Shown here piece by piece: positions 39,755 to 55,896 of a stretch of DNA of 64,000 bases. Below the pieces are notes generated by a model. The model did not search any database and was not told the origin of the DNA. It worked only from the letters and a program-made list of their open reading frames with translations. Within the stretch, counting starts at the first letter, position 1. Every line of letters begins with the position of its first letter. This DNA is from a virus (lineage: Duplodnaviria; Caudoviricetes), in the IMG/VR virus record IMGVR_UViG_3300010340_001609, positions 28,325 through 92,324 of that record; one strand, written 5' to 3'. The position numbers and the translations under genes were made by a program.

Positions 39755-40927
39755 TTAACCTATTTCCAGTTCAGTTTCGTCGTGATTTTTCCTCATATAA
39801 TCATAAGCATCTGAAAGTGATCCTAGATTTTTATAAAATGCTGAAAGACCATATTTGTTCAAAGAAACTTCTCCACACATGATCATATCTTTGTCAATTT
39901 GTTTTGTACTTAAAACAGTTTTTATTTGTGGAACACTCCATATTTTTAAATTTTTATCACTGAAGTTTTCTCCGTTTACTACCAATTCCAAATATGGCTT
40001 ATTTGCTTTTGAAACTTTTTCAGTTATTTTTCTAACAATAAACCAAACAGCAGCTTTGACCTCCGCTTCTGGATTTTCCAGAAAATCTGGTGTTTCAATT
40101 TTGTCAATTGAAATTAGATCCATTTCTTTTATCACTTGTGAATACTCCTCATCTAAAATTAGACTAATGTCCACGCTTCCAGCCAATTCCATCCAAAAAC
40201 TTATTTTTTGAGCTTTAGTCCAATCTGGTGAATTTATAATTTCTTGTTCTTTGGTAAGCGCCTCTATTAATGGTTTGATTTCATTATTTTTCTTTCTGTT
40301 CATCGTTTTTTTAATTTCATCAAATGGTTCAATAATAACATTATAAAGTTGTTTATAGTTTTTATATTTCTTGTTTTGTCCAACGATGTGCAAACTGTCT
40401 AACGCTTCTAGGCAAACTAAGTTTGTTAAACTTTTTTTATTAAATTTAGAGTGTCTTTTTGTCCCATCTGGATTGACGAATAAGTCTTCAATTGAAGAAT
40501 AAGGTTTATATTGTTGAATTTCTTCAAGTGCAGCATTTCCAATTCCAGAAATTGTGGTCAACCCTGGAACTATAGTTTTTTCTTCTTTAGGGTGCATTTC
40601 ATAACCTGCCCCAGAAAAATTAATATCTGGTTTTGAAAACTTATAACCTAATTTTTGAGCCTCTCTCATTGCCACTGTTTTTGGATCTTCTTGTCCTACA
40701 ACTTTCCCTTTTTCTAAGGCGGCATAATCTAAAGCAGAAGTTATCCATTCATCTGGGTAATATTTTAGCAAATAAGCGCATTGATATGTTGCTATCGAAT
40801 ATGAAATCGCGTGAGAATTTGAAGTTAATAATCCATTTTCAAGATAAAATTGATGATCTTCATGTTCCACTTCTAAATCGTATGTTTGTTCTTCTCCTAG
40901 ATATTCAAATGACACTACTTTTGGCAT
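39755..40927 (-). CDS. dnaE: DnaE fragment 5 of 5: IntC4 (37 aa) plus C-terminal extein (353 aa; fingers end, HhH, OB)
   Basis: TYDLEV...HQFYLENGLLTSN|SHAISYS..YQCAYLLKYYP, PDINFS, GLTTISGIG HhH motif. Confidence 0.92.
   Translation of the reverse strand: MPKVVSFEYLGEEQTYDLEVEHEDHQFYLENGLLTSNSHAISYSIATYQCAYLLKYYPDEWITSALDYAALEKGKVVGQEDPKTVAMREAQKLGYKFSKPDINFSGAGYEMHPKEEKTIVPGLTTISGIGNAALEEIQQYKPYSSIEDLFVNPDGTKRHSKFNKKSLTNLVCLEALDSLHIVGQNKKYKNYKQLYNVIIEPFDEIKKTMNRKKNNEIKPLIEALTKEQEIINSPDWTKAQKISFWMELAGSVDISLILDEEYSQVIKEMDLISIDKIETPDFLENPEAEVKAAVWFIVRKITEKVSKANKPYLELVVNGENFSDKNLKIWSVPQIKTVLSTKQIDKDMIMCGEVSLNKYGLSAFYKNLGSLSDAYDYMRKNHDETELEIG
40817..40927 (-). mobile_element. Split intein 4, C-half
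   Basis: Blocks F/G: YDLEV...HQFYLENGLLTSN; +1 residue is Ser. Confidence 0.9.
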
Positions 40928-41897
40928 ATTTTTCTCCTATGAATATTAAACCTGTCTTTATTTCATTTATTTGAGCATTAATATGCTGCTCTAATTCATC
41001 CATATATTTCTTTTTAAGTTTTGTTTTTTTATAATTTAATACATCATATGAAAGTCTTATTATTAAGAATTTTTCCTTTAAATAAGAATTAAATTCCTTA
41101 TCTTTATTTTGAATTTTTTCTAATATTTCTTTATTAAAGAATCTAAAATGTAAGATTCCGTCATATTCAATTATTAATTTTAAATCATTACATTTAATGT
41201 CTATTTGTCTCCATTTTGTTTTAGTAGTAAAATTTATATTATGTTCAAACTGATTTCTTTTAAATTTTAGTTTAGAATATTTGTTCTTAAGATGATTAAA
41301 AAGGATTTCTTCTCCTTTACTTTTAAAGGAAACATTTTTACAAAGTTTAATAATACATTTTTTAAAAAAAAGATTTGGGTTTTCTTTTCTCCATTTTTCA
41401 AGTCGTTTGCTTCTTTGTATTAAAATTTCAGGTCTACTTGATGTTTTTATCGCAGTTTTAGACGATAATTCTACATTGTTTTCTCTAAATTTTGGATCTT
41501 TCCAAAGATTTGACAATAATATTGACCTTCTTTTTCTTTCATTTTGATTATTTAATATATTTTTGGAAACGTTAAATTTCATTTTAGAAATTTTTTCTTC
41601 ATATAAAGAAGGATTTTCTCTTTTATATTTTGTAACCCAATTTTCTCTTCCTTTTTGAGCAGCAGATCTTTTTTCAAAAGAATTTGAAGTTTTTTGTATT
41701 AAAAATTTTTCATTTGGATGATTTGAATTATAATGATTTTTTAATTCTCTAAAATTAAGTTTACATATATCACATTTTAGATAATCTTTACCTTCAATTC
41801 CTATAAGGATAATACAATCTTTTCTATGCTTAACTTTTTTACAAAAAGTACATCGAGGTGTACGTTTTTGAGCTTTTTTTATTATTTTATTAGTCAT
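40905..41897 (-). CDS. Free-standing endonuclease (Vsr/DUF559-like PD-(D/E)XK with Zn fingers) between IntN4 and IntC4; putative homing endonuclease
   Basis: CxxC..H..C and CxxC...H...H at the N-terminus; SKGEE.LF...QF...IDI...LIIEYDG.LH...KD. Confidence 0.75.
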   Translation of the reverse strand: MTNKIIKKAQKRTPRCTFCKKVKHRKDCIILIGIEGKDYLKCDICKLNFRELKNHYNSNHPNEKFLIQKTSNSFEKRSAAQKGRENWVTKYKRENPSLYEEKISKMKFNVSKNILNNQNERKRRSILLSNLWKDPKFRENNVELSSKTAIKTSSRPEILIQRSKRLEKWRKENPNLFFKKCIIKLCKNVSFKSKGEEILFNHLKNKYSKLKFKRNQFEHNINFTTKTKWRQIDIKCNDLKLIIEYDGILHFRFFNKEILEKIQNKDKEFNSYLKEKFLIIRLSYDVLNYKKTKLKKKYMDELEQHINAQINEIKTGLIFIGEKYAKSSVI

Positions 41898-42192
41898 TAA
41901 CTATTTCCAGATTTTCTTTTATTATTTGTTTTATAGGTAACATTCGTCCATCTTTCACTCTAAATTTATGGTCCATAGAACATATTACTTCAACTCCATT
42001 ATCTAGTAAAAATTTAAAAACAGGTATTTTTCCGTGATTATGAAGTTTTTTTACTTTTACAAAAATAGTTTGTTTTGTTTTTTCATCTCTTGATTTAACA
42101 AATTCATTTGACTGAATCTTTTCAATCGTTTTAGTTGTTTTATATATTCCGTTTTTATTATAAATTGGAATTTTAGTGTCTGATTTCAAACT
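41890..42192 (-). mobile_element. Split intein 4, N-half
   Basis: Block A SLKSDTKI (Ser nucleophile); block B ICSMDHKF. Confidence 0.85.
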
Positions 42193-43149
42193 TGCATTGA
42201 ACGAGTATGCGACCAAAGCCTCCATTTTATCAAAAAATGCGGCAGATTTTGCACTGTCAATATTTGCGAATTTTTTTGTTTTATCCACAAACTCTTGTTT
42301 GAGTTTTTCCCTTTCTTTTGCAGCTTTCTCTTTATTACTTGTTTCCTTTTTCGTGAAGGCTTTTCGAACGGAGTCTGTCTCATCCAGCGGCATTCCACAA
42401 AGTTTTGCATAGATCAACTGTAATTGTTCCTGAAATATTAAAAGACCACTTGTGGGTTTCAAGACATCTTCAAGTAATGGATGTTCATACTGGATTTTAT
42501 CTGGGTTCGCTCTGTTATTTAAGAATAACTTATCCACTTTTAATCCCAGCGGTCCTGGGCGGTGTATTGAGGTCGCTATTGCAATATCTCTAATTGAGAC
42601 TGGTTTCATTTTTCTCATAAACTCTTGAGTATTTGGTTTTACAAATTGAAATATTGAAAAGAAATTTCCATTCCAAAAAACATGTTTATAGACTTCTATG
42701 TCGTCAAAATTGTTATTATCTGGTGATAGATGTTTTTGAAACCACTCATTAATTTGTTCAAAACTCGGCTCTTTTATTCCGTGATATTTAATCAGAATTT
42801 TTCTAACTGTGTTTTCAAACATTCTAAGAGTTCCGAGTGCCAAAAAGTCAAATTTTAAAAACCCAAAGTGTTCTAACATTCTGAAGTTAACTCCTTCCGT
42901 CCAAGGAGTTTGAAGACTTCTTTTTTCATTCTTGCCGCCTATTATCAGTGGCATATTCTCTTTTTCCAAGGGCGAGTCCGTCAACACCACGCCGCCCGCG
43001 TGCCGCCCGCAATTTGAAATTAATCCAGCTTCCGTTAAAAGGTTCGGTTGATTGTCGATAAACACACTCGGAGAGACGTTGTGATGAAGGTCATAGACTT
43101 TGTGTTTTCCGTCGAGTTTTTTTATTGATATGATTTTTCGGTTATTCAT
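41890..43149 (-). CDS. dnaE: DnaE fragment 4 of 5: IntC3 (46 aa) plus extein (273 aa) plus IntN4 (100 aa)
   Basis: GLISN|CGRHAGGVV, FLKFDFLALGTL (third catalytic Asp), IFQF, HRPGP, IFQEQL, YSFNA|SLKSDTKI...CSMDHKF. Confidence 0.93.
   Translation of the reverse strand: MNNRKIISIKKLDGKHKVYDLHHNVSPSVFIDNQPNLLTEAGLISNCGRHAGGVVLTDSPLEKENMPLIIGGKNEKRSLQTPWTEGVNFRMLEHFGFLKFDFLALGTLRMFENTVRKILIKYHGIKEPSFEQINEWFQKHLSPDNNNFDDIEVYKHVFWNGNFFSIFQFVKPNTQEFMRKMKPVSIRDIAIATSIHRPGPLGLKVDKLFLNNRANPDKIQYEHPLLEDVLKPTSGLLIFQEQLQLIYAKLCGMPLDETDSVRKAFTKKETSNKEKAAKEREKLKQEFVDKTKKFANIDSAKSAAFFDKMEALVAYSFNASLKSDTKIPIYNKNGIYKTTKTIEKIQSNEFVKSRDEKTKQTIFVKVKKLHNHGKIPVFKFLLDNGVEVICSMDHKFRVKDGRMLPIKQIIKENLEIVND
43012..43149 (-). 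mobile_element. Split intein 3, C-half
   Basis: KIISIKK...KVYDL...AGLISN; +1 residue is Cys. Confidence 0.85.
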
Positions 43150-43600
43150 ATTTTCTTTTTATTTTTCTTTCTAAGAAGTTTATATCAAACGTTTGCGTAT
43201 TATTTTTTCTTAAAAAAATACTTATTTCCTGTTCATTCACAAATTTTTTAAGCTCAACATCATAAAGCAAATTTGATATTATACAGATGTTTGAATTTAA
43301 CAATAATGTTTTTTCATCTTCATATTTTTTTATTTTAAATAAAAAAGTACTTCTTTCTTTTAAAGAAGAAGAGCATAACCATAACATGGTTTTCAAAAAA
43401 TTGTATTCAAAACCTGAATTGTAAATTGAAAGATTTATAACTGGGTATTTGTCTGCAAATTCATTTAAAAGAATTTCATTGGAACAAGAAAAATTAGAGT
43501 TATCTACGACTGAGGAATAATTCAAATTAATCAAATTTTCAAAAAAGAGTAAACGTTCAAATATATGAGTTGAGTAGTTTTCTAACTTCATCACATCCAT
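43142..43600 (-). CDS. Hypothetical protein inserted between IntN3 and IntC3
   Basis: 152 aa; overlaps both flanking dnaE fragments; no motif recognised. Confidence 0.5.
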   Translation of the reverse strand: MDVMKLENYSTHIFERLLFFENLINLNYSSVVDNSNFSCSNEILLNEFADKYPVINLSIYNSGFEYNFLKTMLWLCSSSLKERSTFLFKIKKYEDEKTLLLNSNICIISNLLYDVELKKFVNEQEISIFLRKNNTQTFDINFLERKIKRKYE

Positions 43601-43872
43601 CCAATCAAACTATCATCTGATGACAAATCAATTACTTTTTTCCATCCTTTATCTGTTTGCACTAAATGGTCTTCTGTTAATTTAATAGTCTTACCATCAC
43701 TCATAGTAATCTCATATAGTTCTTTTTCACCATTTTCTATTTTAAAATAATCTGAATTAAACTGCAATTCACCAGTAGTATCAACAAACGCAATTTTATC
43801 AACATCTTCTTTTATGTTTTTAAATGCTTTCCAACCATTGTTTGTCATAATAATGGTATCCTCCGTAAAACA
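43591..43872 (-). mobile_element. Split intein 3, N-half
   Basis: Block A CFTEDTIIMTNNGWK; block B IKLTEDHLV..DKGWK. Confidence 0.9.
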
Positions 43873-44268
43873 AGACTTAATTTGTTTAAATAAGATTTTT
43901 AGGCTTGATTCAAGTTGTGGATATTCTTCTAATAATTCATTAAACGTCGGAGAATTTTTCTCCGCACTTTCATATGAAAGAAACCAGACGCCTCTATCGA
44001 AACCATCTTGTTGCTTGTCTGCTGCCAATGTTTCCTTTTCTATCTGTTGGGTTACAGGATTTATAAGTTCAAATGGTATTTGATAGAGTCTTGCCAAATC
44101 TTTAATTAAAGATTTTAGCTGTAACTGGTTATAGTTTGAAACTGGCAAAACTGATTCTTCGCCAAAATGCTCAGTCAATATCTTAATGGCTTCTTCCCGA
44201 TCAGCACAATCGCTATTGTGACTAACAATCGAAAATCCACTTTCATAGAATGAATGTAGTTTTTTCAT
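43591..44268 (-). CDS. dnaE: DnaE fragment 3 of 5: IntC2 (18 aa) plus extein (114 aa) plus IntN3 (93 aa)
   Basis: SIVSHN|SDCADREEAI...FG..SV..VSNY...KSLIKDLAR...QIKS|CFTEDTII...LTEDHL. Confidence 0.92.
   Translation of the reverse strand: MKKLHSFYESGFSIVSHNSDCADREEAIKILTEHFGEESVLPVSNYNQLQLKSLIKDLARLYQIPFELINPVTQQIEKETLAADKQQDGFDRGVWFLSYESAEKNSPTFNELLEEYPQLESSLKILFKQIKSCFTEDTIIMTNNGWKAFKNIKEDVDKIAFVDTTGELQFNSDYFKIENGEKELYEITMSDGKTIKLTEDHLVQTDKGWKKVIDLSSDDSLIGWM
44215..44268 (-). mobile_element. Split intein 2, atypically short C-half
   Basis: MKKLHSFYESGFSIVSHN; +1 residue is Ser. Confidence 0.8.
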
Positions 44269-44295
44269 TTAGTATTTTCCTCATTTCCTTTTGCT

Positions 44296-44754
44296 TCATT
44301 CCAGGCAATCTTGCTGTAATCCATAATTTTTTTCTACTTTCAAAATTCCATTTTCTTCCAAAACATTAAATGGTATAATATTAAAACTTTTTGTTGATTC
44401 TATACTAATATCAACCAGTTCAACTTTTTGATTGTTTAATTTTCTTTTTTCTACTATCGAACAATTTATATGATTTGATTTAATCAAATCACCAACATTT
44501 AACGAATAAACATTTTTAATTGAAGAATTTTCAGTGAAAAATCTATGCTTACCAGTTGCAATTATACAACCATAACAATCATTGATTTTTACGAAAATTT
44601 CAAATAAATCATCAGTTTCACACGAAACTCTTTGCGAAGTAAATAAAACTCTTTCTTTTTCGTTAAAAATATTGATGATAAAATCACCTTGTTTAATGTT
44701 TTTGATTTTCTTATACCCAGTCGTTGTTGGGACTAATGTATTTGCTTCTAAACA
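44296..44754 (-). mobile_element. Split intein 2, long N-half
   Basis: Block [11 protein letters not shown]; block B IATGKHRF; also contains block-F-like [14 protein letters not shown]. Confidence 0.85.
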
Positions 44755-44979
44755 ATCAATATCTGGAAGTCCTGCCTTTTTCTTACTAAGAAATCTTTCA
44801 AATAACAATCCATGTTTTACAGGATCTACTTGAGTTATCCCAGTTGCATAACAAACCAAAGATCCTGCACCAGAATTATGTACTGGTATACCCTCTACAT
44901 TATAAGAATTCTTATTCTCAACAGAGAGATCATATACTTTTCCTTTATATTTTGAGTATGATTTATTCTTCAGTTTCAT
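44296..44979 (-). CDS. dnaE: DnaE fragment 2 of 5: IntC1 (35 aa) plus extein (40 aa) plus IntN2 (152 aa)
   Basis: VYDLSV...IPVHN|[40 protein letters not shown]|CLEANTLV...ATGKHRF. Confidence 0.93.
44875..44979 (-). mobile_element. Split intein 1, C-half
   Basis: [22 protein letters not shown]; +1 residue is Ser. Confidence 0.92.
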
Positions 44980-45271
44980 TTATTATTATTCCTAGCTTTT
45001 TTTGATTCAGCAATATTTGTCCCAAAAAAACAACTTTCCTGTCAATTCCAACAGATGCTACTATATTCATTTGTCCATAAAAAATAACATATATTATGTT
45101 ATAATATCCATCTAACAAATATTCTGTTAGTATTTCTGATGATAATACTATGTTGTCATTAATATCTGATTCATATTTTACTTTTTTCTCTAATCTTTTC
45201 TGAAAGAAGGCAAAGTCAATATGAAAATTTATTTTTTCTTTATCTTTTTCATTTTTTATTGATACAATCAT
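44963..45271 (-). CDS. Hypothetical protein
   Basis: 102-aa ORF overlapping pth2 and dnaE fragment 2. Confidence 0.45.
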
Positions 45272-45675
45272 AATAATTTTAATTCTCTTGTGAGTTCATC
45301 TATTCTAGATGCCTCATGCGGGCCTATCGCCATGCAGGTTCTAGTAGACACTCCATTAAATTCAGTCAAGCCTGAATCTGTTATTAAATGAGTGACTAAT
45401 CCTTTAGATTTGGCATTTTCAAAAAGTAAAAGAAGTTCATCTTCTGAATTTACATAAACACAAATTTTGCGTTGACCTGTATTAATCCAATTTAATTCCT
45501 CTTCTGAATATTCAAAATTTTTTGTTTTTATTTTTTCAAGTAAAAAAGCAATACTTGCGTGCGCAATTTGAGCTGCTATTTTACCCTTTCTTACATTTAA
45601 ATCTTTACGCCAAATTAGCACTTGTTTTACGTTTATATCATTCATGATTTCATAATTAAAATTATGAATATACAC
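45268..45675 (-). CDS. pth2: Peptidyl-tRNA hydrolase, Pth2 type
   Basis: KQVLIWRKDL..RKGKIAAQIAHAS, DSGLTEF, TCMAIGP, IDELT..LKLL; likely start at 45645. Confidence 0.92.
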   Translation of the reverse strand: MYIHNFNYEIMNDINVKQVLIWRKDLNVRKGKIAAQIAHASIAFLLEKIKTKNFEYSEEELNWINTGQRKICVYVNSEDELLLLFENAKSKGLVTHLITDSGLTEFNGVSTRTCMAIGPHEASRIDELTRELKLL

Positions 45676-46989
45676 TTTGAAATATATTTTGAAAATTTAA
45701 AAATTAAATTGAAAAAAGAATTTGATTCCGAATCAATAAAACTGTTCGAAGAAGCCGTTTCTATTTGTAGAATTAAATTAAAAAAACACGGACTATATGA
45801 AACTTGGAAGCCGTATGAATATGTTTCAATTTCAAAAAATCAATCATTTTTATTTGAAGAAATTAGCAGTGAAATTCCTGCCGATGTAAATGCTGCAATG
45901 AGTTCACAAATAGCTGCCATTAAAAATTTAAGAAAATGGTTTATGTCTTTACCCGAAAAAAAGCAAACAATAATAAATTCAAAGTCTGTTGATCTTCTTA
46001 AATCAAGAAAAAATTTTTTTGCCGAACTAGAAGATTTGGAAGATGAAATTAATGGAATATATGGAAAATTACAAAAAGGTGGTTTTTTTAGTAAGTTAGC
46101 AAAAAAAGGGTTTGGTTTTTTTCAACGTGGAATGAGTAGTCTTGGAGCTGGTGAAGTTACAAATACTAATATAGATGAAAAACTTTCTGGTGCATTGTTA
46201 TCAACAAACAGCGAACTGTTTAGTCAAGTACGTGATGCAATTTCAAATATTGTAGCAGATGAAAAAAGAAACTTGATTGGAAGGGAAATGGTAAATCAAC
46301 TTTCAAGAAGATTTAATGTCAATCCACATGATATTGCAAATGCAGCTCACTCAATTGGAGTGAATGTTCAAGGTACATTAGGAACAGTTTCTTCTCCTCA
46401 AAATGTTGCTGCTGCGGCAACTGTTGCTAATCAACCAACCACCGCAGCAACCGCGGTTGGATCTAAATTAGGAATGCCATTAATGGCAAAAATGGGAATC
46501 GGTGCGGGTGTTTTTGCTTTGGTTGCCGCAGGCGCCGCTGGTATGAAAATGAGAAGTAGAAGAAAACGCATAGAAAATTTGCAAAAAGTCGCAAAATTAT
46601 TCGGAGCTAAAAATGACATTATCACAAATGTTGTGGTTGACAATAATATTGAAAATTTAAAAAATCAAAATCAATTAGGTTCTGGAGTTATTTCATCTAA
46701 AGAATTGCCGTCGGGAGAAACACCTAAACAGTTAATGCCAGGGGATGATTATTTAAATTCAAAAACGAATACCAACCTTCTAAATCCACCACCATCAAAC
46801 AAAGAAGAAGCTAAAAAATTTCTTCAATTGGATCCAACAACAGAAGATCACTTAGCAATAAAAAAAGCTGAAGATACAATACAAAAAATAAGAGACAACC
46901 AAGTTAAACTTCATAAACTTGAAACTAATGTAATACTTGCCAGAAAACATTTAATCAATGAAATTAAATTAAAGAAAATTATATTTTAA
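45622..46989 (+). CDS. Putative internal virion protein with a hydrophobic Ala/Gly segment
   Basis: Likely start at 45664 after TAATTA; LFEE motifs; MGIGAGVFALVAAGAAG followed by a basic cluster. Confidence 0.5.
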   Translation: MFYVYIIHDFIIKIMNIHFEIYFENLKIKLKKEFDSESIKLFEEAVSICRIKLKKHGLYETWKPYEYVSISKNQSFLFEEISSEIPADVNAAMSSQIAAIKNLRKWFMSLPEKKQTIINSKSVDLLKSRKNFFAELEDLEDEINGIYGKLQKGGFFSKLAKKGFGFFQRGMSSLGAGEVTNTNIDEKLSGALLSTNSELFSQVRDAISNIVADEKRNLIGREMVNQLSRRFNVNPHDIANAAHSIGVNVQGTLGTVSSPQNVAAAATVANQPTTAATAVGSKLGMPLMAKMGIGAGVFALVAAGAAGMKMRSRRKRIENLQKVAKLFGAKNDIITNVVVDNNIENLKNQNQLGSGVISSKELPSGETPKQLMPGDDYLNSKTNTNLLNPPPSNKEEAKKFLQLDPTTEDHLAIKKAEDTIQKIRDNQVKLHKLETNVILARKHLINEIKLKKIIF

Positions 46990-46992
46990 TAA

Positions 46993-47415
46993 TCACATAA
47001 AGATACCAGTTATTTTTTTATAATCTATTTCAACATTAGTAAATCCTTTATCGAAAACAATTGATACTTCAAAAAGTGATTTGTTTTTAATAAATTCTAA
47101 TTGATAAAATTCTTCGCAAGGAAAAATTTCATATAAAGATTTATAAAAAGAATATCTCCGATAAATTTCTTTTTCGTTTAAAACTTGATAACAATGATTT
47201 ATGGAAAAAAGTGCTTGTTCATATTGGTCAATTTCAATTCGTATTGAATATTTTATATCGGATAACAAAATAAAATTTTGTTTTTTAATAAAAGCAATGT
47301 TTTTTTCAGATTCATAATCTTGAAAGAAAGAAAAATTTTTTTTATACATATTATCCACAAGTGATAATACTTTTTTTAAAAATTCTTCTTCTTCGAAGCT
47401 TTTAATGCTATTCAT
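46993..47415 (-). CDS. Hypothetical protein
   Basis: 140-aa ORF overlapping the thyA stop. Confidence 0.45.
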   Translation of the reverse strand: MNSIKSFEEEEFLKKVLSLVDNMYKKNFSFFQDYESEKNIAFIKKQNFILLSDIKYSIRIEIDQYEQALFSINHCYQVLNEKEIYRRYSFYKSLYEIFPCEEFYQLEFIKNKSLFEVSIVFDKGFTNVEIDYKKITGIFM

Positions 47416-48281
47416 ACAGCTATTTCCAATTCTGATTTTATTTTTTTAGGAGAATTAAAACCTTTAATAAGAAAATCTTCTAATTTTATCGAATAGAAAC
47501 CTTTGTTTATATTCAATTCTAAAACTGGGTTTTCCTCTAGAGGTTCTCTCAACATTAGTTCATTTGCCGCATTTAAATGCCTATCATAAATGTGTAAATT
47601 GTGTACATAATGACAAAATTTTCCAGGTTTATAATTCAAATCTGAGCAAACCATTAAAAGCAAAGCATAATATTGCGCTTTATTAATCCAGTTTGCCATT
47701 ATATAATCTGAACTTCTTTGAACTAACGTCATGTCAAGAATCATTTCCTTTTCTTGCTTCCTAACAGACCATATAGTTTCATATGCACATGGATGTAAAC
47801 CTTTAGATTCTAAAAGATCAGATTCTTGATAAAGATTCATTATATGTCTTCTGCTAAATGGTTCTTGTTTTAAACTATGTAAAAGTTTATTCATTAAATC
47901 CCATTTTTTTACTGTTTCTCCATAGCGAATGCCAATGGTCCCATTACCAATATCCCAATTGTCCCACCAGTCAATTCCACTTTGCCGCGCCGTTTGAAGC
48001 GAGGAATCCTGGCTCTGGTAAATCCACATTACTTCTTTAATTCCAGTTTTGACGGCTGTGTTCCTAAGCGTTGTAAATGGAAATTCTCCATTATAAACAT
48101 CATATTCTTCAAAAACTTGAGTCAAATATATACTTTTTGCTGGTGTTCCATCTTTATATTTTGGTCTTGGATTTTCGTCTTTATAACCTTTGGTTATAAG
48201 TTTGTATAGATTTTGTTTATAGTATTGATCAGCTTTATTCATTTTATTATTTATCTTTTTGTTCCTCAAAATAAAACCCAT
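47412..48281 (-). CDS. thyA: Thymidylate synthase (ThyA)
   Basis: FPFTTLR, SRRHI, LHPCAY catalytic Cys, QRSSD...N, HNLHIYDRH; likely start at MNKADQYY. Confidence 0.92.
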   Translation of the reverse strand: MGFILRNKKINNKMNKADQYYKQNLYKLITKGYKDENPRPKYKDGTPAKSIYLTQVFEEYDVYNGEFPFTTLRNTAVKTGIKEVMWIYQSQDSSLQTARQSGIDWWDNWDIGNGTIGIRYGETVKKWDLMNKLLHSLKQEPFSRRHIMNLYQESDLLESKGLHPCAYETIWSVRKQEKEMILDMTLVQRSSDYIMANWINKAQYYALLLMVCSDLNYKPGKFCHYVHNLHIYDRHLNAANELMLREPLEENPVLELNINKGFYSIKLEDFLIKGFNSPKKIKSELEIAV

Positions 48282-48900
48282 AAAGATTTTTTAATTCTAG
48301 ATTATTTTTAGATTTTAATAATCCATAAGATAATAATCTGTGAGTTCCATCTATTATTTTATATGTTCCAGTTGAAGTTTTACAAACAACTAATCTATTT
48401 GTTGCTACCCAAATATTTTTAGAATTTAAAATTTTTTGCGATGTAATTTCTTTTGTTTTTGGTAATTTTACTTCATTTATTTCAAACCAAGATTCAAGAG
48501 ATTTCATTCTCTTTCTTATATCTTCTATTGCATCAATAGATTTTTCAATGTCTTCTTTATTTTTTCTTATGATTTTAAACCCTTTATTTTTCGATATGGA
48601 CAATTTATAATTGTCCAAAAATGTCTCAAACGAGATATTCGAAAAACAGGATTCAAAACTCATTAATTCTTCAAACGAAAATTTTGCAAATGTAATAGAT
48701 GAATTTTTCATAAATTCTGATATATATTTTCTTTTTGAATCAAAAACTGTTTCTCTTAGTTTGTTTTGAATTTGACAAGAGAAATTAGGATCTTCAATTA
48801 ATGAAGAATTTAATAGTTTAATATTGTCTATTAATGCGTGATCGCCATTCAACATGGACCATATTAAAAATTCTTTATTTGTTGTTTGTATTATTTTCAT
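48247..48900 (-). CDS. Hypothetical protein with ParB/Srx-like motif
   Basis: LVVCK...YKIIDGTHRL. Confidence 0.5.
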   Translation of the reverse strand: MKIIQTTNKEFLIWSMLNGDHALIDNIKLLNSSLIEDPNFSCQIQNKLRETVFDSKRKYISEFMKNSSITFAKFSFEELMSFESCFSNISFETFLDNYKLSISKNKGFKIIRKNKEDIEKSIDAIEDIRKRMKSLESWFEINEVKLPKTKEITSQKILNSKNIWVATNRLVVCKTSTGTYKIIDGTHRLLSYGLLKSKNNLELKNLYGFYFEEQKDK

Positions 48901-49235
48901 TCGATTATATATTTTTCCATTCCAGGAATTATTATTTTTTCTTGAATCCCATCCTTGTCAATATATTTCCAAATTTGAACAATTGGATACTCAGGATGAA
49001 CTTCTTTTGAGAGAATTATAAATTTACTTAAATCAAGTTTATTGCGATGAAAATACCAAATACGGTGTCCATTTAACCACCAGGATTTTTTACCATTTTC
49101 CCAAATAACCGCTGGCCCATCTTCTCTATGGTTGCTGCCGTTTTTATACCACCAATTATCTCCATTGCTCCATTCAATGATTCCCGTATAATCATCTGGG
49201 ATTTCACTCCAATGTTTTATTTTTATGGTTTTCAT
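48897..49235 (-). CDS. HREDGP-motif protein, tandem copy A
   Basis: YTGIIEW..G..WWYKNG..HREDGPA. Confidence 0.75.
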   Translation of the reverse strand: MKTIKIKHWSEIPDDYTGIIEWSNGDNWWYKNGSNHREDGPAVIWENGKKSWWLNGHRIWYFHRNKLDLSKFIILSKEVHPEYPIVQIWKYIDKDGIQEKIIIPGMEKYIIE

Positions 49236-49582
49236 TCAGTTATATATTCTTTCATCCCAGGGTTTATCACTTGTTCTTGAATTCCATTCTGATCAATATA
49301 TTTCCAAATCTGAACTGTTGGGTATTCAGGATGAATCCCTTTTGAGAGAATGATTTTGTTTTTTAAATTAAGTTTATTCCAACGGGAACTCCAAATCATT
49401 TTATTATCCAAATACCAGGCTTTGTCATCATTTTCCCAAATAATCGCTGGGCCATCTTCTCGATGCCATTTTTCATTTTTATACCACCATTTATCTCCAT
49501 TTTCCCATTCAATAATTCCCGTATAGTTATCTGGAACTTCGGTCCAATGTTTTGCTTTTATTGTTATCATTCTATAATCCAC
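49232..49582 (-). CDS. HREDGP-motif protein, tandem copy B
   Basis: Paralog of copy A. Confidence 0.75.
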   Translation of the reverse strand: MDYRMITIKAKHWTEVPDNYTGIIEWENGDKWWYKNEKWHREDGPAIIWENDDKAWYLDNKMIWSSRWNKLNLKNKIILSKGIHPEYPTVQIWKYIDQNGIQEQVINPGMKEYITE

Positions 49583-49917
49583 TCTTCCATTCCAGGAATT
49601 ATAATTTGTTCCTGAATTCCATTCTGATCAATATATTTCAAAACTTGGCAAGTTGAATATCCTAGATGCGGCTCTTTCAAAAGAACTATATATTCATTTA
49701 AATCAAGTTTATTTTGATTAGAATACCAAATACGGTATCCATTTAACCACCAGGATTTTTTGCCATTTTTCCAAATAACCGCTGGTCCATCTTCTCGATG
49801 CCACTTTCCGTTTTTAAGCCACAATTCATCCCCATTCTCCCATTCAATAATTCCTGTATAGTGTTTTGGAACATCCTCCCAATGTTTCACTTTTATCGTT
49901 TTCATTCTATAAACCAC
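49567..49917 (-). CDS. HREDGP-motif protein, tandem copy C
   Basis: Paralog of copy A. Confidence 0.75.
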   Translation of the reverse strand: MVYRMKTIKVKHWEDVPKHYTGIIEWENGDELWLKNGKWHREDGPAVIWKNGKKSWWLNGYRIWYSNQNKLDLNEYIVLLKEPHLGYSTCQVLKYIDQNGIQEQIIIPGMEEWIIE

Positions 49918-50240
49918 TCTTCCATCCCAGGAATCACAATTTGTTCTTGAATTCCATATTCATCAATATATTTGAATAGTTGACAAGCTACATACAATGG
50001 ATGTGGTTCTTTCGAAAGAATTATTCTATTTCTTAAATCTAATTTATCCCAACTAGAATTCCAAATATATTTTCCATCTAACCACCATTCTTTCTCTCCG
50101 TTATAATAAATAAATGATGGTCCATCTTCTCGATGCCGTTTTCCATTTTTATACCACCATTTTGAACCACTTAAGAATTCAACAATTCCTGTATAATTGC
50201 TTGGAATTTCATAACCCGTGTTTGCTTTTATTGTATTCAT
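49902..50240 (-). CDS. HREDGP-motif protein, tandem copy D
   Basis: Paralog of copy A. Confidence 0.75.
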   Translation of the reverse strand: MNTIKANTGYEIPSNYTGIVEFLSGSKWWYKNGKRHREDGPSFIYYNGEKEWWLDGKYIWNSSWDKLDLRNRIILSKEPHPLYVACQLFKYIDEYGIQEQIVIPGMEEWFIE

Positions 50241-50816
50241 TTACACAATTTCTTTTTTTATATTATATTTTTTCAGCACATATCTTTCATAAAAGATATT
50301 TTCTTTGCTGTTATCATTTTTAAAATATGATTTTTCATCTAATAAAGAAACTTTTTCCTCTTGAAACCATTGATTTGAGTCAATTAAAGATTTGGGTGAA
50401 AAATCTATTTTTTTATCAAAAACATTGACTTTTTTCTGGTTGATTGTTTCAGATAATTCTGAAAAATAAATCTCATCAACCAATGAAAATAGCTGTCTAT
50501 AAATTTCTGATCCACCTATAATAAAAATTTTATTATTAACTGAATAAATGATTTCTTTGTTTTGCTCTTTCCATTCATCAACTGATGAAAATATTTTGAT
50601 TCCTTCTTTTTGAGCTAAAGTTTTTGAAATAACATGATTGATTCTATTAGGAAGAGGTTTTCCAATTGATTCGAAAGTTTTTCTTCCCATTACAATCATG
50701 TTATTACTCGTCAAAGTTTTGAACCACTTTAGATCAGAAGGAAGAAACCAAGAAAGGGCATTATCGTTTCCGATATGCCCTTCTTTAGTTGCTGCGACAA
50801 TTAACGCTACCGTCAT
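50241..50816 (-). CDS. folA: Dihydrofolate reductase
   Basis: LIVAA....IG.DNAL.W.LPSDLKWFK..T, VMGRKTFESIGKPLPNRINHVIS, FIIGGSEIY. Confidence 0.95.
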   Translation of the reverse strand: MTVALIVAATKEGHIGNDNALSWFLPSDLKWFKTLTSNNMIVMGRKTFESIGKPLPNRINHVISKTLAQKEGIKIFSSVDEWKEQNKEIIYSVNNKIFIIGGSEIYRQLFSLVDEIYFSELSETINQKKVNVFDKKIDFSPKSLIDSNQWFQEEKVSLLDEKSYFKNDNSKENIFYERYVLKKYNIKKEIV

Positions 50817-50827
50817 AGTAGCATATG

Positions 50828-52540
50828 TTACTTCTGATTTTTCGTGCTGTCAAGTGTCAAGCGAGCGATTACAGACATTACAAACACGTTGCCCAAGGTC
50901 CAAACTAGCATAGGAAACCAGCCGAAAGGAAAGGCGTGCAAACCACTCAAGAAAGTGCCTAGCAGAAATGCTGAAGTTCCGAGTGTAAAGCCGCCAATGG
51001 GTGCTCTTAGAGCTTTATTGGAATAGAATGTTCCAATCAAGACAAGAGGCAGAAAAGCGCTTCCAAGTGGAAGAAACTGATGAATGAATGTATTTGTAAA
51101 GAATGTCAATTCTCCTGGCGGGACAGTTAGAATTTTAGGCAACGAGAATGGCAGCCACATTGTTAGAATACTAAGACCAAAAGTCGCATACATTGCTGGG
51201 AATAGCCAGCGTTTTTGATCTTCTACTTTGCCGCCTTTTTTGGCAATGGCGGCCATTATAAGTGCTGTCATTAACATAAATGAAAACCCTCTCCAAAGGG
51301 ATTTTTTCATCTCAATTTTTGAAACAGCATTTTTTGCTGAAACAACTCCAGCACCATAAAGTTCTGGACTTCTGTCTCTATGTTCTGGCACTTCCGCAGA
51401 TGATCTTAAAATAGATTCAACTGCGGAAGGATCTGTCACTCCCATAGAAACAATCAACGCAGCAACTCCTGCAACGTGTGGCGCAGCCATTGAAGTTCCG
51501 CTCCACGCAACAAATTGTTCACAGCCATTTCTGCCTCTGTCACAAATAGTTTGTTGAGGAATATTGACACCAGGGGCCGCAATTGCAATTTCAGTTCCTC
51601 TAGAGCTAAATTCTGCAATTACATCCCCTGGTCCAATTGCACTAACTGCAAAAGATCCAGGTTCATTTGCAGGCGATTCTACTCTGTGTCCATTGTTTCC
51701 CGCAGCGCAGATAACAACAGAACCTCTCGCCCTCGCATAAGCTACAGCTTCCGCCATAATTGGGTTTCTAGGCCCTCCACCAAGAGAAAGGTTAATTACA
51801 TTTGCACCGTTATCGGCAGCAAACCTAATTCCTTCCGCAACATCGGCCAAAGTACCAGAACCTCTGGAATCCAGCACTTTAACAGGAATAATTGTAGAAC
51901 AATGTGCAATCCCCGCAAACCCAACGCCGTTATTTGTTGCTTGCGCAATTGTTCCAGCAACATGACTTCCATGACCTTGATCGTCGGATGCTCTATTCGT
52001 ATCATTAACAAAGTTCCATCCTTCGACACAATTTGTCGTGTTAAGATCGGAAAGTCTTTGGAAGTTTCCGTGTGTCTCGCACGCAACACCAGTATCAACC
52101 ACAGCTACTCTAACATTTCTTCCGCAAGTTTGGTTCCATGCTTGTTCTACGCCAATTCGACGTAGGCCCCATTGTTCTGAAAATCTAGGATCATTTGGAG
52201 TCCAAAACATTCTCATAACATGATTTTGTTCCGCCCCCTGTACGTTTGATTCGTTGCGAATACGCGAAATAATGCTGTTTCCAGCATTTGCTTCCGCTCT
52301 AAATAAATAAATTCTATCTGAATTTACCATTTGTGGGCTATTTGCCTGTAGATTGATTCCATAGCGCTGAGAAACTTCCCTGATTGAAGTTTCTGATGCC
52401 GAATCCTGAAAATCGACAACAAATTCCTGTTCAGAACTTGATTGTCCAGATTCATCATTAAATGTTGCGTGTTGCGCAGCCGCGGCACTCGGAAACAACG
52501 CAGAAACGAGAAGTACAGAGAGACTAGTTAGCTTTTTCAT
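50828..52540 (-). CDS. Subtilisin-like S8 serine protease with signal peptide, prodomain and C-terminal membrane domain
   Basis: VAVVDTG (Asp), GHGSHVAGTI (His), SGTSMAAPHVAG (Ser); several C-terminal TM helices; visibly higher GC than flanks. Confidence 0.93.
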   Translation of the reverse strand: MKKLTSLSVLLVSALFPSAAAAQHATFNDESGQSSSEQEFVVDFQDSASETSIREVSQRYGINLQANSPQMVNSDRIYLFRAEANAGNSIISRIRNESNVQGAEQNHVMRMFWTPNDPRFSEQWGLRRIGVEQAWNQTCGRNVRVAVVDTGVACETHGNFQRLSDLNTTNCVEGWNFVNDTNRASDDQGHGSHVAGTIAQATNNGVGFAGIAHCSTIIPVKVLDSRGSGTLADVAEGIRFAADNGANVINLSLGGGPRNPIMAEAVAYARARGSVVICAAGNNGHRVESPANEPGSFAVSAIGPGDVIAEFSSRGTEIAIAAPGVNIPQQTICDRGRNGCEQFVAWSGTSMAAPHVAGVAALIVSMGVTDPSAVESILRSSAEVPEHRDRSPELYGAGVVSAKNAVSKIEMKKSLWRGFSFMLMTALIMAAIAKKGGKVEDQKRWLFPAMYATFGLSILTMWLPFSLPKILTVPPGELTFFTNTFIHQFLPLGSAFLPLVLIGTFYSNKALRAPIGGFTLGTSAFLLGTFLSGLHAFPFGWFPMLVWTLGNVFVMSVIARLTLDSTKNQK

Positions 52541-52585
52541 TTTTCTTCTTTCGTTGTGGTTTATTGCAGTCGTTCAGTCCACCCC

Positions 52586-52613
52586 ATGATAAGCACCGCG
52601 AGCGCGGCGTCAA
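52586..52613 (-). promoter_or_regulatory. Sigma70-type promoter with GC-rich spacer, upstream of the S8 protease
   Basis: TTGACG-ccgcgctcgcggtgct-TATCAT. Confidence 0.65.
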
Positions 52614-52659
52614 CCGCAAATTCTTAAATCTCATCACACATTGTTAATGTGCGCAGGTC

Positions 52660-52896
52660 TTATACATGTTTTTCATATTGAAAAACATTTTTTATAAATG
52701 CATGGAAGTATTTTCCCTTGGATTCTGAATTTTTAAATTCAAACCAAGTTTCTTCTGATACTCCTTTATATTCATAAACCGAACCATTTGTTTTAAATTG
52801 TAACTTTAATCTATGGTACAAAGGGTTATATTCAGCTTTTAAAAGTAACTTACTACTTTCAGTATCGAATTGTTCTGTTGTTAGTGTATCTATCAT
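52660..52896 (-). CDS. KTSC-domain protein
   Basis: SS.L....YNP....L.LQFK.NGSVYEY.GV....W..F..SESKGKYF...IK. Confidence 0.85.
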   Translation of the reverse strand: MIDTLTTEQFDTESSKLLLKAEYNPLYHRLKLQFKTNGSVYEYKGVSEETWFEFKNSESKGKYFHAFIKNVFQYEKHV

Positions 52897-52929
52897 TTTT
52901 TATTAATCTCTTTTAACTATTTTTTTCTC

Positions 52930-53361
52930 TTAGATTTTGTTTATTACAACTTTAGACATTGGAAGATATCTTCCAGAAAAAACTCTTTTTACATGCTTTA
53001 TTTGTTTACTATCAACAAAATAAAAATTAAAATTTTGATGTTTTAGTGAATCTGCTAAAACTTTCTCCTTTTTATACAAATTTTTTTCTTCAAGAACAAG
53101 AAGAAGAGTTAAATCACTCTGTTTGGTATTTTTTGAAAAAAAATTTTTATTCGACGGAAGAGGAATTAAATTTTTATATTTTTGTCCAAATTTCTTAATA
53201 GAATTTTTTATTTTTCTATTCATTTTTGCTACTTCAACAAAGTACAATCCTTGTTTATAAAATGTGTTTATATTAACTTTAATTGATGTTTTTTCAAAAA
53301 TAAGAGAATTATAATTGATTAATAAATGATAATAAAAAGTAACTAAATCTGATTTATTCAT
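52930..53361 (-). CDS. Hypothetical basic protein
   Basis: 143-aa ORF. Confidence 0.45.
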   Translation of the reverse strand: MNKSDLVTFYYHLLINYNSLIFEKTSIKVNINTFYKQGLYFVEVAKMNRKIKNSIKKFGQKYKNLIPLPSNKNFFSKNTKQSDLTLLLVLEEKNLYKKEKVLADSLKHQNFNFYFVDSKQIKHVKRVFSGRYLPMSKVVINKI

Positions 53362-53386
53362 TTTAAACCACTTGTTTCAAATGCAC

Positions 53387-53416
53387 AAAAACCCATAAAG
53401 AATATCTTTATGGGTT
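53387..53416 (-). terminator. Intrinsic-terminator-like hairpin
   Basis: AACCCATAAAGA-ATA-TCTTTATGGGTT 12-bp stem with a short T tract on the minus strand; second hairpin TATTGTCT-AATA-AGACAATA at 53422-53441. Confidence 0.6.
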
Positions 53417-53451
53417 CGATTTATTGTCTAATAAGACAATAGACTATTGTG

Positions 53452-53880
53452 TCAAACTCTTTTTGAGTTCATTGCTTTTACATAAGTTGTAAAAAATGAA
53501 CCCGCCGATTTACGGCGACGCCATGACATAGCCATTTCTTTAGTGAAGCCTTCGTAGAGATATCTATCACCGTTTTTGAAAACTACGGTCATATTACCCA
53601 TGACAGGATTGCTTTTATTTGTGGCTACCCAACGGAAACTTTTAATAAAAGTGCTTTCTTCAAATTTGTGTTCAATTGTAAACAATGCGTTGTGCGCAAC
53701 TTTTGTAGTTGTATTTTTTGTTGAAGGTGTTGTTCTCTTTAACTTTGGATGAATTTTTGATCCAATTGTTTTATTAGTAGTAGTTGTTGATGATGATTTT
53801 GACATTTTTCTTGTTGATGATTTTTTCGTAGTCATTTTTCTTGTGTTTGTGTTTGTTTTTGTCTTTGTCATGGCACACAT
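53452..53880 (-). CDS. KTSC-like domain protein with Lys/Thr-rich N-terminal tail
   Basis: ESTFI.....MTVVFKNGDRYLYEG......W....SAGSFFTTYVK; likely leaderless start at 53871. Confidence 0.65.
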   Translation of the reverse strand: MCAMTKTKTNTNTRKMTTKKSSTRKMSKSSSTTTTNKTIGSKIHPKLKRTTPSTKNTTTKVAHNALFTIEHKFEESTFIKSFRWVATNKSNPVMGNMTVVFKNGDRYLYEGFTKEMAMSWRRRKSAGSFFTTYVKAMNSKRV

Positions 53881-53906
53881 TATAAGGCGCCGTGAGCGGC
53901 CGTCAA
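53879..53906 (-). promoter_or_regulatory. Sigma70-type promoter with GC-rich spacer
   Basis: TTGACG-gccgctcacggcgcct-TATAAT, with ATG 7 nt downstream. Confidence 0.7.
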
Positions 53907-53923
53907 CCCCTCGCGACTAATTT

Positions 53924-54157
53924 TCAATCCTCGTTGTGTTTGACTTTATATTGAATAAAGTGTTGTTGTACAACTTTTAATTCATCAAAAGTTAATCCAA
54001 TAGAATCTTGTTGACCACTAACATTTATAAAAAAAACTTCAGAATATCTTTGCCTGTCGTATCCATGATCGTCAAACAAAACAACGGTTCTTGCTCTTAT
54101 GACAAGATCTTTTTTTTCTCCTAAAGTTTCTTCACGAATTATCTTCTGCTTTAACAT
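53924..54157 (-). CDS. Hypothetical protein
   Basis: 77-aa ORF. Confidence 0.45.
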   Translation of the reverse strand: MLKQKIIREETLGEKKDLVIRARTVVLFDDHGYDRQRYSEVFFINVSGQQDSIGLTFDELKVVQQHFIQYKVKHNED

Positions 54158-54497
54158 TAATTTGTTCCTCTTGTTTTTTTTCTTCTAATTCATCTAGAAT
54201 AGCTTTAATTCCTAAAAATGTATATCCATTACAATCAAGATATGCATCTAATCTACCTTCTTCTGGTGGCAATAAACTACTATTTGCTATTCTACTTAGT
54301 TTATCTAAAACTCTAACAATAAACATTAAATCTGAATATTGTTCTGGAACAACGCCATCTGGAAAAAGAAGTTTAAGATGTTCTGATGTTTTATTGAAAG
54401 AATTTCCATATGCTTTATTTTTCTTTTCTAGTAATTCAGCCTGTGTCGTTGCAATTTCTAAAAATGTTTTACCCATAAACAAATGATAAACACACAT
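54132..54497 (-). CDS. DUF1599-like / nucleotide-modification-associated all-alpha protein
   Basis: LLEKKNKAYGNSF...RVLDKLSRIAN...DAYLDCNGY. Confidence 0.6.
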   Translation of the reverse strand: MCVYHLFMGKTFLEIATTQAELLEKKNKAYGNSFNKTSEHLKLLFPDGVVPEQYSDLMFIVRVLDKLSRIANSSLLPPEEGRLDAYLDCNGYTFLGIKAILDELEEKKQEEQINVKAEDNS

Positions 54498-54518
54498 AAT
54501 ACATTGCGCAATAGAAAA

Positions 54519-54785
54519 CTATTCTTTTTCTACTGGGAGATTTATATATACAACAACGATCGTATATTTGCCACGCATTGATTGCGAAGATTTCAAGTAA
54601 TTCATCACTGAAATTTCAGCCGCCTCCCAAGAATCAAATAATGGATCTGTTTTTCCATCTATTGTTACAGATTCAAAAAATTCATTTACAATCCGAAATT
54701 TTTTATGGGGCACGAGTTTAAAATCATGAGAACTAATTTTTCTTGGGGATAAATCATTTCTCTGCCCCGTTTTTTTATTTTTCAT
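54519..54785 (-). CDS. Hypothetical protein
   Basis: 88-aa ORF. Confidence 0.4.
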   Translation of the reverse strand: MKNKKTGQRNDLSPRKISSHDFKLVPHKKFRIVNEFFESVTIDGKTDPLFDSWEAAEISVMNYLKSSQSMRGKYTIVVVYINLPVEKE

Positions 54786-55179
54786 TAAATTCCTTTAAGT
54801 TTATTTTAATAGAAGGAATTCCTTTTAAAAATTTTTTATTTTCCAAATATTCTTGAAACCCAGAAAAAACATAAAAAATTTCCTTGGTAACTTTGTTTTG
54901 ATACATTATTGTTGGAAAATAAAAATTGATTATATCTTTTTCATCTTTATATTTTCCCATATCAACAATCTTATATTGAGTTTTGAAAAATTTCCTTACA
55001 GTTCTCCTTGTAATGATTTTAACAGGCTCTAATTCTTTTATTTCATTTTCTGTAAGTGAAACGGCATTAAAATAACATCGTTCATCATATTCATCTTGAA
55101 TTATTTCAAAAAACATGAAATACGTTGTTGTTTTGCCCACTTTTGTTATACAATTCTTTAAAAGTTTTCTTGTGAGCAT
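54775..55179 (-). CDS. Hypothetical protein
   Basis: 134-aa ORF with AAGGTG RBS-like site. Confidence 0.45.
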   Translation of the reverse strand: MLTRKLLKNCITKVGKTTTYFMFFEIIQDEYDERCYFNAVSLTENEIKELEPVKIITRRTVRKFFKTQYKIVDMGKYKDEKDIINFYFPTIMYQNKVTKEIFYVFSGFQEYLENKKFLKGIPSIKINLKEFNEK

Positions 55180-55205
55180 TGTCCACCTTATTAATAAGTA
55201 TATGA

Positions 55206-55520
55206 TTATTCTTTTGAGTCAGTTTGCATTATAGCAATAATATGCTTTATTAACTTTTGTGGATCTGTTATTAACTCTTTATTTGTTTCTATTGAAACAG
55301 AAATCAAACTTGTTAAGGCTTCAATTTCAAAATAAATATTTTTAAATGATAAAGTTGTCATTATTACCACAAATATATTTTCTAACACATCATCAGATTT
55401 AGAATTTTCGATCGAGGAAAATTGATTTAATTCATCAATTTTTGAATTTAAAAATTCAATTTGTAATTCAGTAAGATCATCATAAATACCTTCGTTTTCT
55501 AGTGCGATTTTATTTATCAT
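55206..55520 (-). CDS. Hypothetical acidic protein
   Basis: 104-aa ORF with AAGG upstream. Confidence 0.45.
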   Translation of the reverse strand: MINKIALENEGIYDDLTELQIEFLNSKIDELNQFSSIENSKSDDVLENIFVVIMTTLSFKNIYFEIEALTSLISVSIETNKELITDPQKLIKHIIAIMQTDSKE

Positions 55521-55530
55521 TTTTACCTTT

Positions 55531-55878: not shown

Positions 55879-55896
55879 TATTAGATATGTTGTAAG

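Follow-up and report, generated by a model that had tools for sequence, protein, structure and literature searches.

A candidate naturally split intein with a short C-half in the fragmented DnaE gene of a metagenomic phage, and its relatives

Introduction

This locus raises the question of whether a polymerase whose gene is broken inside the active site could be made whole by an intein that is itself divided at an unusual place, close to its C-terminus. The window studied here, a 64,000-nucleotide stretch (positions 28,325 to 92,324) of the 92-kb, metagenome-derived viral contig IMGVR_UViG_3300010340_001609 in IMG/VR, which is estimated to be 25% complete, carries a gene for DnaE, the alpha subunit of DNA polymerase III (Pol III). 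Open reading frame (ORF) calling together with Pfam searches resolved this gene into five separate ORFs on the minus strand, numbered 1 to 5 in Table 1, at whose ends the N-terminal and C-terminal halves of inteins (IntN and IntC) are found. The second pair of halves, IntN2 and IntC2, interrupts the gene directly after the motif PDID, which we take to hold the two catalytic aspartates of the palm (D401 and D403 in E. coli). A preliminary description, made from the sequence letters alone, had called this pair a natural C-proximal split with an N-half of 152 aa and a C-half of 18 aa. From profile searches, predicted structures and the relatives of the locus, we consider it highly probable that the pair forms a functional, naturally split class-1 intein, cut between its blocks F and G.

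Position of the break

The preliminary description had placed block F within the 152 aa of IntN2, and the ORF coordinates, the Pfam match and the alignment to a known intein all agree with this. Positions 1-133 of the 137 in the Pfam profile PT-HINT align to residues 82-213 of ORF 2, and almost the entire HINT domain, with block F as part of it, is therefore in IntN2. In a profile search against the sequences of PDB entries, the gp41-1 intein ranked first (E 1.7e-10). The IntN profile aligned to it through the block F "NHLF" strand, to about residue 116 of 125, and this strand belongs to IntC in gp41-1 and to IntN in the family described here. The exteins on both sides of the pair are recognizable as polymerase, with PF07733 (DNA_pol3_alpha) matching residues 29-75 of ORF 2 (E 1.8e-16) and residues 22-81 of ORF 3.

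For IntC2, the length of 18 aa given in the preliminary description stands, while its characterization as essentially block G needs refining. When aligned to gp41-1, only the last 8-9 residues or so correspond to the canonical block G strand, and the first 10 or so are specific to the family.

We generated a predicted structure of the two halves joined by reading through the break. For this construct (P0125), window positions 44149-44784 of the minus strand were translated with Gly at the three stops and folded with AlphaFold2, using an alignment of 17 rows made up of contiguous (cis) forms, IntN rows and IntC rows. The model has a mean predicted local distance difference test score (pLDDT) of 84.1 and a predicted template modeling score of 0.79. 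It contains the block F strands (122-128 and 133-137), an extra hairpin formed by the IntN tail (strands 139-144 and 147-151, with a pLDDT of about 90 for the block), a disordered linker where the stops had been (156-169), and the final strand contributed by IntC2 (186-189, pLDDT about 87). Its superposition on complete inteins extends from Cys1 as far as the terminal Asn. Against gp41-1 (6QAZ), Z is 17.4 and the root-mean-square deviation 1.7 Å, with 126/128 residues aligned over the model range 8-190 and Asn190 aligned with the terminal Asn of gp41-1. There are 85 chains with Z of at least 8 against this model, and those listed, a few BIL and hedgehog HINT domains apart, are nearly all inteins. 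IntN2 folded alone has a pLDDT of 74.8, falling to about 50 in the second block F strand. This model matches inteins with Z of 10-11, and the matched range stops before the last strand, at residue 140-141, which corresponds to about residue 120 of gp41-1.

Sequence profile and AlphaFold2 prediction thus agree that IntN2 would supply all of the HINT fold except its last strand and that IntC2 would give this strand. IntN aligns to residues 1 to about 116-120 of the 125 in gp41-1, and IntC2 holds the final strand plus about 10 noncanonical residues. In the models, the break is in the loop before the last beta-strand, between blocks F and G, like the site known as S11 in engineered inteins. The 23-residue tail of IntN and the first 10 or so residues of IntC2 make up a family-specific insertion between these two blocks.

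Relatives with the same split

Relatives of ORF 2 were found by a word-index protein search, their contigs were fetched, and their junctions were read. Proteins P0002-P0008 have the same length and layout as the product of ORF 2 at 40-67% identity, and in each the long IntN ends in stops. The window's own protein is recorded in identical form on four contigs. In seven loci, the window and six diverged metagenomic ones, both halves are found at the same polymerase site, between PDID and Ser or Cys, with an IntN of 145-182 aa and an IntC of 18-21 aa. The two lengths are 152 and 18 aa in the window, with a 27-nt spacer between the halves; 145 and 18 aa in L004, with 35 nt between halves that are out of frame with each other; and 162 and 21 aa in L006, with 340 nt that include a C-terminal remnant of an endonuclease gene. 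In the remaining four loci an intact ORF stands between the halves: 353 aa in L007 (150 and 18 aa), 351 aa in L009 (182 and 21 aa), 330 aa in L010 (146 and 18 aa) and 339 aa in L011 (163 and 20 aa). The ATG of IntC has an in-frame stop 0-9 codons upstream and a purine-rich stretch ahead of it in 7/7 loci. With short C-halves behind upstream stops throughout, and with an endonuclease gene between the halves in relatives, the natural C-proximal split proposed in the preliminary description is borne out.

Alleles that lack the intein provide a further reference. In P0010 and P0014, PDID reads directly into S/N-D-C-A-D-R, which fixes both splice junctions. A scan of IMG/VR with an alignment of the C-extein retrieved 24 loci, 20 of which are empty sites where PDID runs straight into the extein; the others are two cis mini-inteins at this site and inteins at neighboring sites. 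No further split intein at this site was present among these 24 loci. When the fractured dnaE region as a whole was compared by blastn with deposited phage genomes, nothing matched, and tblastn of IntN2 against the same genomes gave only weak partial matches to other inteins (at most 63% coverage, about 30% identity). None of the cultured phages in that collection has this intein or a full-length relative of it.

The relatives also have a second insertion site, six residues upstream, before G-L-P-D-I-D, which holds either a split IntN of canonical length (about 90 aa) or a cis intein. This site is occupied by a split intein in P0009, P0011-P0013, P0015 and P0016 and by a cis intein in P0005 and P0127, the latter two having inteins both there and after PDID.

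A profile built from the seven IntN sequences was searched against 1.84 billion cluster representatives (50% identity) and gave 1701 matches at E<=1e-3, of which 99 are at E<=1e-10. Among the best 150 of the 1701, which were typed as split or cis, 46 representatives are of the split type at the D-x-D/Cys1 site. All 46 have the block F motif and Cys1 directly following D-x-D, most have a conserved Tyr in the tail of IntN, and from Cys1 to the end of the ORF they measure 130-193 aa (median 162). On these matches, the same predicted split is a widespread family and not a singleton.

The same 150 matches include five cis inteins at this site (P0127, P0158, P0168, P0190 and P0211), four of which were verified on contigs (L012-L015). 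P0168 is essentially without an insertion between blocks F and G, as are L020 and L021 from IMG/VR; the other cis forms have 12-25 additional residues there. A maximum-likelihood tree of the IntN core has the cis forms dispersed among the split forms, with P0127 nested in the well-supported clade of the window (supports 97/88 and 98/95) and P0158 in a different split clade (95/84). The simplest reading of this nesting is that the halves re-fused once the endonuclease gene was lost, and some lineages appear to have taken this course.

Catalytic residues and predicted splicing

The residues C1, H70, L113, D115, F124, P128 and Y144 of IntN are invariant in the seven loci, as are M1, S6, H17 and N18 of IntC, with Ser or Cys at the +1 position. 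H70 is the block B His, and L113, D115 and F124 align to block F of gp41-1. The block G pair His-Asn followed by Ser or Cys at +1 is also found in the five cis relatives. For the two closest pairs of loci, the ratio of nonsynonymous to synonymous substitution rates (dN/dS) is about 0.10-0.16 in the IntN tail and 0.09-0.14 in IntC, and it is 0.27 in the IntN core for the single close pair with an estimable dS; these values are rough, as dS is near saturation, the segments are 17-18 codons long, and parts of them overlap the endonuclease ORF in L007 and L010. With Cys1, blocks B, F and G, a predicted HINT fold and alleles with an empty site, the element has the features by which a class-1 intein is recognized.

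A functional split intein would work at this locus as follows. The split would go back to the insertion of a free-standing, Vsr-like homing endonuclease gene into a contiguous intein, between its blocks F and G. IntN2 would fold nearly the whole HINT domain by itself, and IntC2 would dock as the missing last beta-strand, bringing the penultimate His and the terminal Asn with the +1 Ser next to them. The association of the halves may be aided by the tail hairpin of IntN and by the N-terminal 10 or so residues of IntC2. A thioester formed at Cys1 by an N-S shift would then be attacked by the +1 Ser, and cyclization of the Asn would free the intein, with PDID joined to the SD of the following extein and the palm motif of the polymerase active site restored.

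Several observations weigh against such a functional intein. According to the rates tabulated in PMC11766414, inteins engineered with a break close to this site tend to be slow and to bind weakly, so high efficiency cannot be taken for granted. Some relatives have Ser or Asn in place of the block B Thr, and Lys stands where many inteins have the block F His. On the structural side, the docking of IntC2 is predicted from the read-through construct, with its Gly residues at the stops and its shallow 17-row alignment. The read-through model is more confident than that of IntN alone, but the two were built from different alignments, which confounds the comparison and makes the gain suggestive only.

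One alternative is that the pair is a nonsplicing relic, so that either the polymerase works from noncovalently associated pieces or the gene is dead. The missing block F His is in keeping with this, as are the poor binding that might be expected of a very short IntC and the loss of the endonuclease gene in the window, a sign of ongoing decay of the element. However, all catalytic residues are invariant in seven loci whose remaining sequence differs by up to 70%, the exteins are strongly constrained (dN 0.02-0.1), and the family persists across at least 46 clusters at 50% identity. Moreover, without splicing the active site would be burdened with 152 + 18 additional residues between the Asp motif and its continuation. 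We regard a relic as unlikely.

The IntN tail

The tail of IntN suggests another alternative, in which it is a degenerate block G plus extein start that occupies the slot of the last strand in free IntN and has to be displaced from it by IntC2 through strand exchange. MAFFT twice placed IntN tails on the block G/extein region, the PT-HINT match extends within IntN2 almost to the end of the profile, and the tail, besides its conserved Tyr, often has an x-I-D-x-D motif reminiscent of the HN/xD of the true junction. Nevertheless, when the tail profile was compared with a profile of block G and extein using hhalign, the probability was 0.1 and E was 0.53. The intein matches of the IntN-alone model end before the tail, which is not in the last-strand slot, and the cis relatives have a tail-like segment as well as a true block G. 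A self-capping tail is therefore distinctly improbable, and the tail was likewise rejected as a decayed duplicate of block G and extein start.

If the pair is a functional split intein, the tail may have a different role. It is possible, and we put this forward tentatively, that the tail hairpin and the extra residues of IntC form a built-in clamp, which throughout the family would provide the affinity for efficient trans-splicing with a C-half of 18-21 residues. Were this true, the family would offer the first natural C-proximal (S11-like) split intein and a scaffold ready for the attachment of synthetic peptides at the C-termini of proteins, and it would mean that homing endonuclease genes can colonize an intein at a second position.

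The gene between the halves and its deletion scar

The intact ORFs of 330-353 aa in L007, L009, L010 and L011 overlap both intein halves and share 33-56% mutual identity. Their matches to Vsr, DUF559, MTES_1575 and DUF7487 are weak, with E of 0.0001-0.2 for the first three, below the cut-off. In L006 only the C-terminal remnant is found. The putative endonuclease gene is intact in these four relatives and decayed in L006, while the window and L004 have lost it by deletion.

For the window, the deletion can be followed by alignment to its closest relative, L010. Window positions 44400-44294 are colinear with L010 684-790 (85/107 identical) and positions 44293-44190 with L010 1696-1799 (77/104 identical), and the 905 bp of L010 that are absent from the window are the interior of its 330-aa endonuclease gene. 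What the remnant ORF in the window keeps of that gene is the first 10 or so codons and its 3' end. Judged by this colinearity, a 905-bp deletion from the endonuclease gene left the 27-nt spacer as its scar.

After IntN2, the frame runs into stops at 44296-44298 (TGA), 44281-44283 (TGA) and 44269-44271 (TAA), and IntC2 starts with an ATG of its own (44266-44268), 9 nt ahead of which stands a ribosome-binding-like GAGGA (44278-44282). The preliminary description had reported the common frame, the three stops and the GAGGA, and the window sequence reads just so. The spacer being a deletion scar, this same-frame, three-stop arrangement is incidental to the window.

The common frame had nevertheless given rise to a caveat in the preliminary description, namely that the intein is really contiguous and only seems broken through two compensating homopolymer errors; recoding, by stop read-through or paired frameshifts, would have the same effect. 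The halves are 27 nt apart in one frame, adding an A to the A7 run (44327-44333) and removing one from the A6 run (44260-44265) opens that frame, and forms that seem re-fused in cis exist among the relatives (P0127, P0158 and P0190). Restoring the frame is thus possible in principle, but it requires two independent errors or the read-through of three stops, one of them TAA, in a protein that is identical on four contigs and a spacer that is accounted for base by base as a scar, with GAGGA in place before the ATG. L004 lost its endonuclease gene independently of the window and has its halves still in different frames, while L007, L009, L010 and L011 have intact genes between theirs. As the same split recurs across seven diverged loci and their family, homopolymer errors are unneeded and cannot explain the family, and we consider a contiguous intein in the window very improbable. 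An alternative genetic code was tried as well: reading TGA as sense would add only eight residues to IntN2, up to the TAA preceding the ATG, and the split stays. Finally, that the break is an assembly or gene-calling artefact of an incomplete metagenomic contig is scarcely credible, since the architecture recurs in independent samples and assemblers (Logan, ENA and JGI) and in the 46 cluster representatives.

Other features of the locus

The coordinates of the DnaE ORFs and of the parts of the second intein are collected in Table 1. IntC1 was recognized by a match of positions 123-155 of the Intein_splicing profile to residues 3-35 of ORF 2, and in ORF 3 the residues 129-222 match Hint/Intein_splicing.

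Table 1. Pieces of the DnaE gene and of its second intein in the window.
Feature	Coordinates	Strand	Description
DnaE ORF 1	55897-57741	-	PHP domain and IntN1
DnaE ORF 2	44296-44979	-	227 aa: IntC1, 40-aa extein, IntN2
DnaE ORF 3	43591-44268	-	IntC2, 114-aa extein, IntN3
DnaE ORF 4	41890-43149	-	IntC3, extein, IntN4
DnaE ORF 5	39755-40927	-	IntC4 and final extein
IntC1	44875-44979	-	35 aa; C-half of the preceding split intein; starts ORF 2; His-Asn end before Ser
DnaE extein piece 2	44755-44874	-	40 aa; palm motif PDID at its end
IntN2	44299-44754	-	152 aa; Cys1 at 44752-44754, directly after PDID
IntN2 block B His	44545-44547	-	Motif T-G-K-H in the window
IntN2 block F strands, both	44368-44424	-	
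IntN2 tail	44299-44367	-	23 aa past the block F Pro-Phe; predicted beta-hairpin
Spacer between halves	44269-44298	-	TGA, 4 codons, TGA, 3 codons, TAA; frame common to both halves
Remnant ORF, other frame	44265-44324	-	19 codons; putative deletion scar of a Vsr-like homing endonuclease gene
IntC2	44215-44268	-	18 aa; His-Asn terminus, then Ser-Asp-Cys of the extein
DnaE extein piece 3	43873-44214	-	114 aa; first residue is the +1 Ser
IntN3	43594-43872	-	Directly after extein piece 3

The other interruptions of the gene differ in what they hold. Between IntN1 and IntC1 are about 11 kb (44980-55896) with many genes, among them a PTH2 peptidyl-tRNA hydrolase, a thymidylate synthase and an S8 subtilase; in L006 and L009, the equivalent pieces are adjacent or unsplit. 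In ORF 1, the 164-position PHP profile is stretched over residues 16-297, pointing to some 120 inserted aa in that domain of the first DnaE piece. Between IntN3 and IntC3, and overlapping both, is a 152-aa ORF without a Pfam match (43142-43600, minus strand), perhaps a mobile-element gene that is small or degenerate; relatives have ORFs of 160 aa (L004 4103-4585) and 139 aa (L010 2386-2805) at this position. Between IntN4 and IntC4 is a 330-aa ORF (40905-41897, minus strand) with a weak DUF559 match (E 0.054). BLASTP found no similarity (E<=0.01) between it and the endonuclease genes that stand between IntN2 and IntC2 in relatives, and it probably represents a different endonuclease lineage. 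The fourth intein itself, encoded at the end of ORF 4 and the start of ORF 5, seemingly opens with Ser and not Cys, following FNA of the extein, and the C-extein restarts with SHA. By its sequence, it may be a split intein of the oxyester type, a kind sought for cysteine-independent splicing.

Outside the DnaE gene, a ribonucleotide reductase small subunit of 642 aa (60576-62504, minus strand) matches its Pfam profile in two stretches, the best being residues 419-591; an intein, or a large insertion or fusion of another kind, is probably present in this ORF.

Comparison with known split inteins

The closest known systems are the split inteins of fractured genes. In the main text of Dassa et al. 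2009 (PMC2677866), the N-parts are 88-105 aa and the C-parts 33-54 aa, the canonical break before block F, and three DnaE loci are among the fractured genes. The intein described here resembles that main-text set in its phage or metagenomic replication gene, in having halves on adjacent ORFs with class-1 catalytic residues, and in a putative Vsr-like endonuclease gene, present in relatives and with weak matches there, that lies between the halves, overlaps both ORFs and is later lost. It differs from that set by a break after block F (IntN 130-193 aa, IntC 18-21 aa) and by the hairpin insertion. The sole unusual case in that text, Terminase, has a long C-part and thus the opposite asymmetry. 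The best match in both sequence and structure, gp41-1, belongs to the fractured-gene group. With the cyanobacterial Ssp and Npu DnaE inteins, the shared trait is a split intein in the Pol III catalytic subunit; those have another insertion site, a canonical split (102-123/36 aa), distant loci and a bacterial host, and they match the IntN profile weakly (E 0.15-0.4).

Noncanonical natural splits have been described only at the sites S1 and S2 near the N-terminus, with an IntN of 15-37 aa (PMC10189870; PMC13014065, March 2026; review PMC11766414, 2025): 25 aa in AceL-TerL, 37 in GOS-TerL, 16 in VidaL and 15 in PolB16 OarG. The statement of the preliminary description that known atypical splits mostly have short N-halves is in line with this literature from 2023 to March 2026 (PMC10189870, PMC13014065). 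Like those inteins, the present one would be a natural noncanonical split with one synthesizable fragment from a phage or metagenome source; unlike them, its short fragment is the C-half and its IntN is long. The literature searched, which leaves out most subscription journals, gave no example of a natural split intein whose C-half is short.

Breaks of this kind are known from engineering, with S11 splits of Ssp DnaB, GyrB and DnaX and of Ter DnaE-3 that have an IntC of 6 aa (PMC3620165, PMC11766414), and an Npu DnaE split with a 15-residue IntC (PMC2664965). In those designs too the break is just before the last beta-strand or strands, with block F in a large IntN and block G in a small IntC, and they are intended for trans-splicing synthetic peptides onto the C-terminus of a protein. 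Most are slow or of low affinity, with rates of about 1e-4 to 1e-5 per s (PMC11766414). In contrast, the present split is natural and conserved and has extra residues on both sides of the break, the tail hairpin and about 10 residues of IntC, which may have evolved to hold the halves together.

The position of the invading gene is also a point of comparison. Nested endonuclease domains have been reported at a single conserved position in inteins (PMC6801210), and canonical natural split sites coincide with this position (PMC13014065), whereas the free-standing gene found here is between blocks F and G. The relatives display what looks like the full cycle of invasion, decay, deletion and apparent re-fusion.

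Split inteins are standard ligation tools, and a fragment fit for solid-phase synthesis lets chemists install probes and modifications. Natural short-fragment inteins usually outperform artificially cut ones, but those described so far have short N-halves, so labeling on the C-terminal side relies on the slow, weak-binding engineered S11 and 15-residue splits (PMC11766414, PMC2664965, PMC13014065). IntC2 might thus be useful for peptide ligation, as the preliminary description had suggested, and a natural, evolution-tuned intein whose C-half has 18 aa would fill this gap, with dozens of diverged and possibly orthogonal variants available. Taken together, the comparison supports a family of natural split inteins broken between blocks F and G, beyond the canonical and S1/S2 splits described previously.

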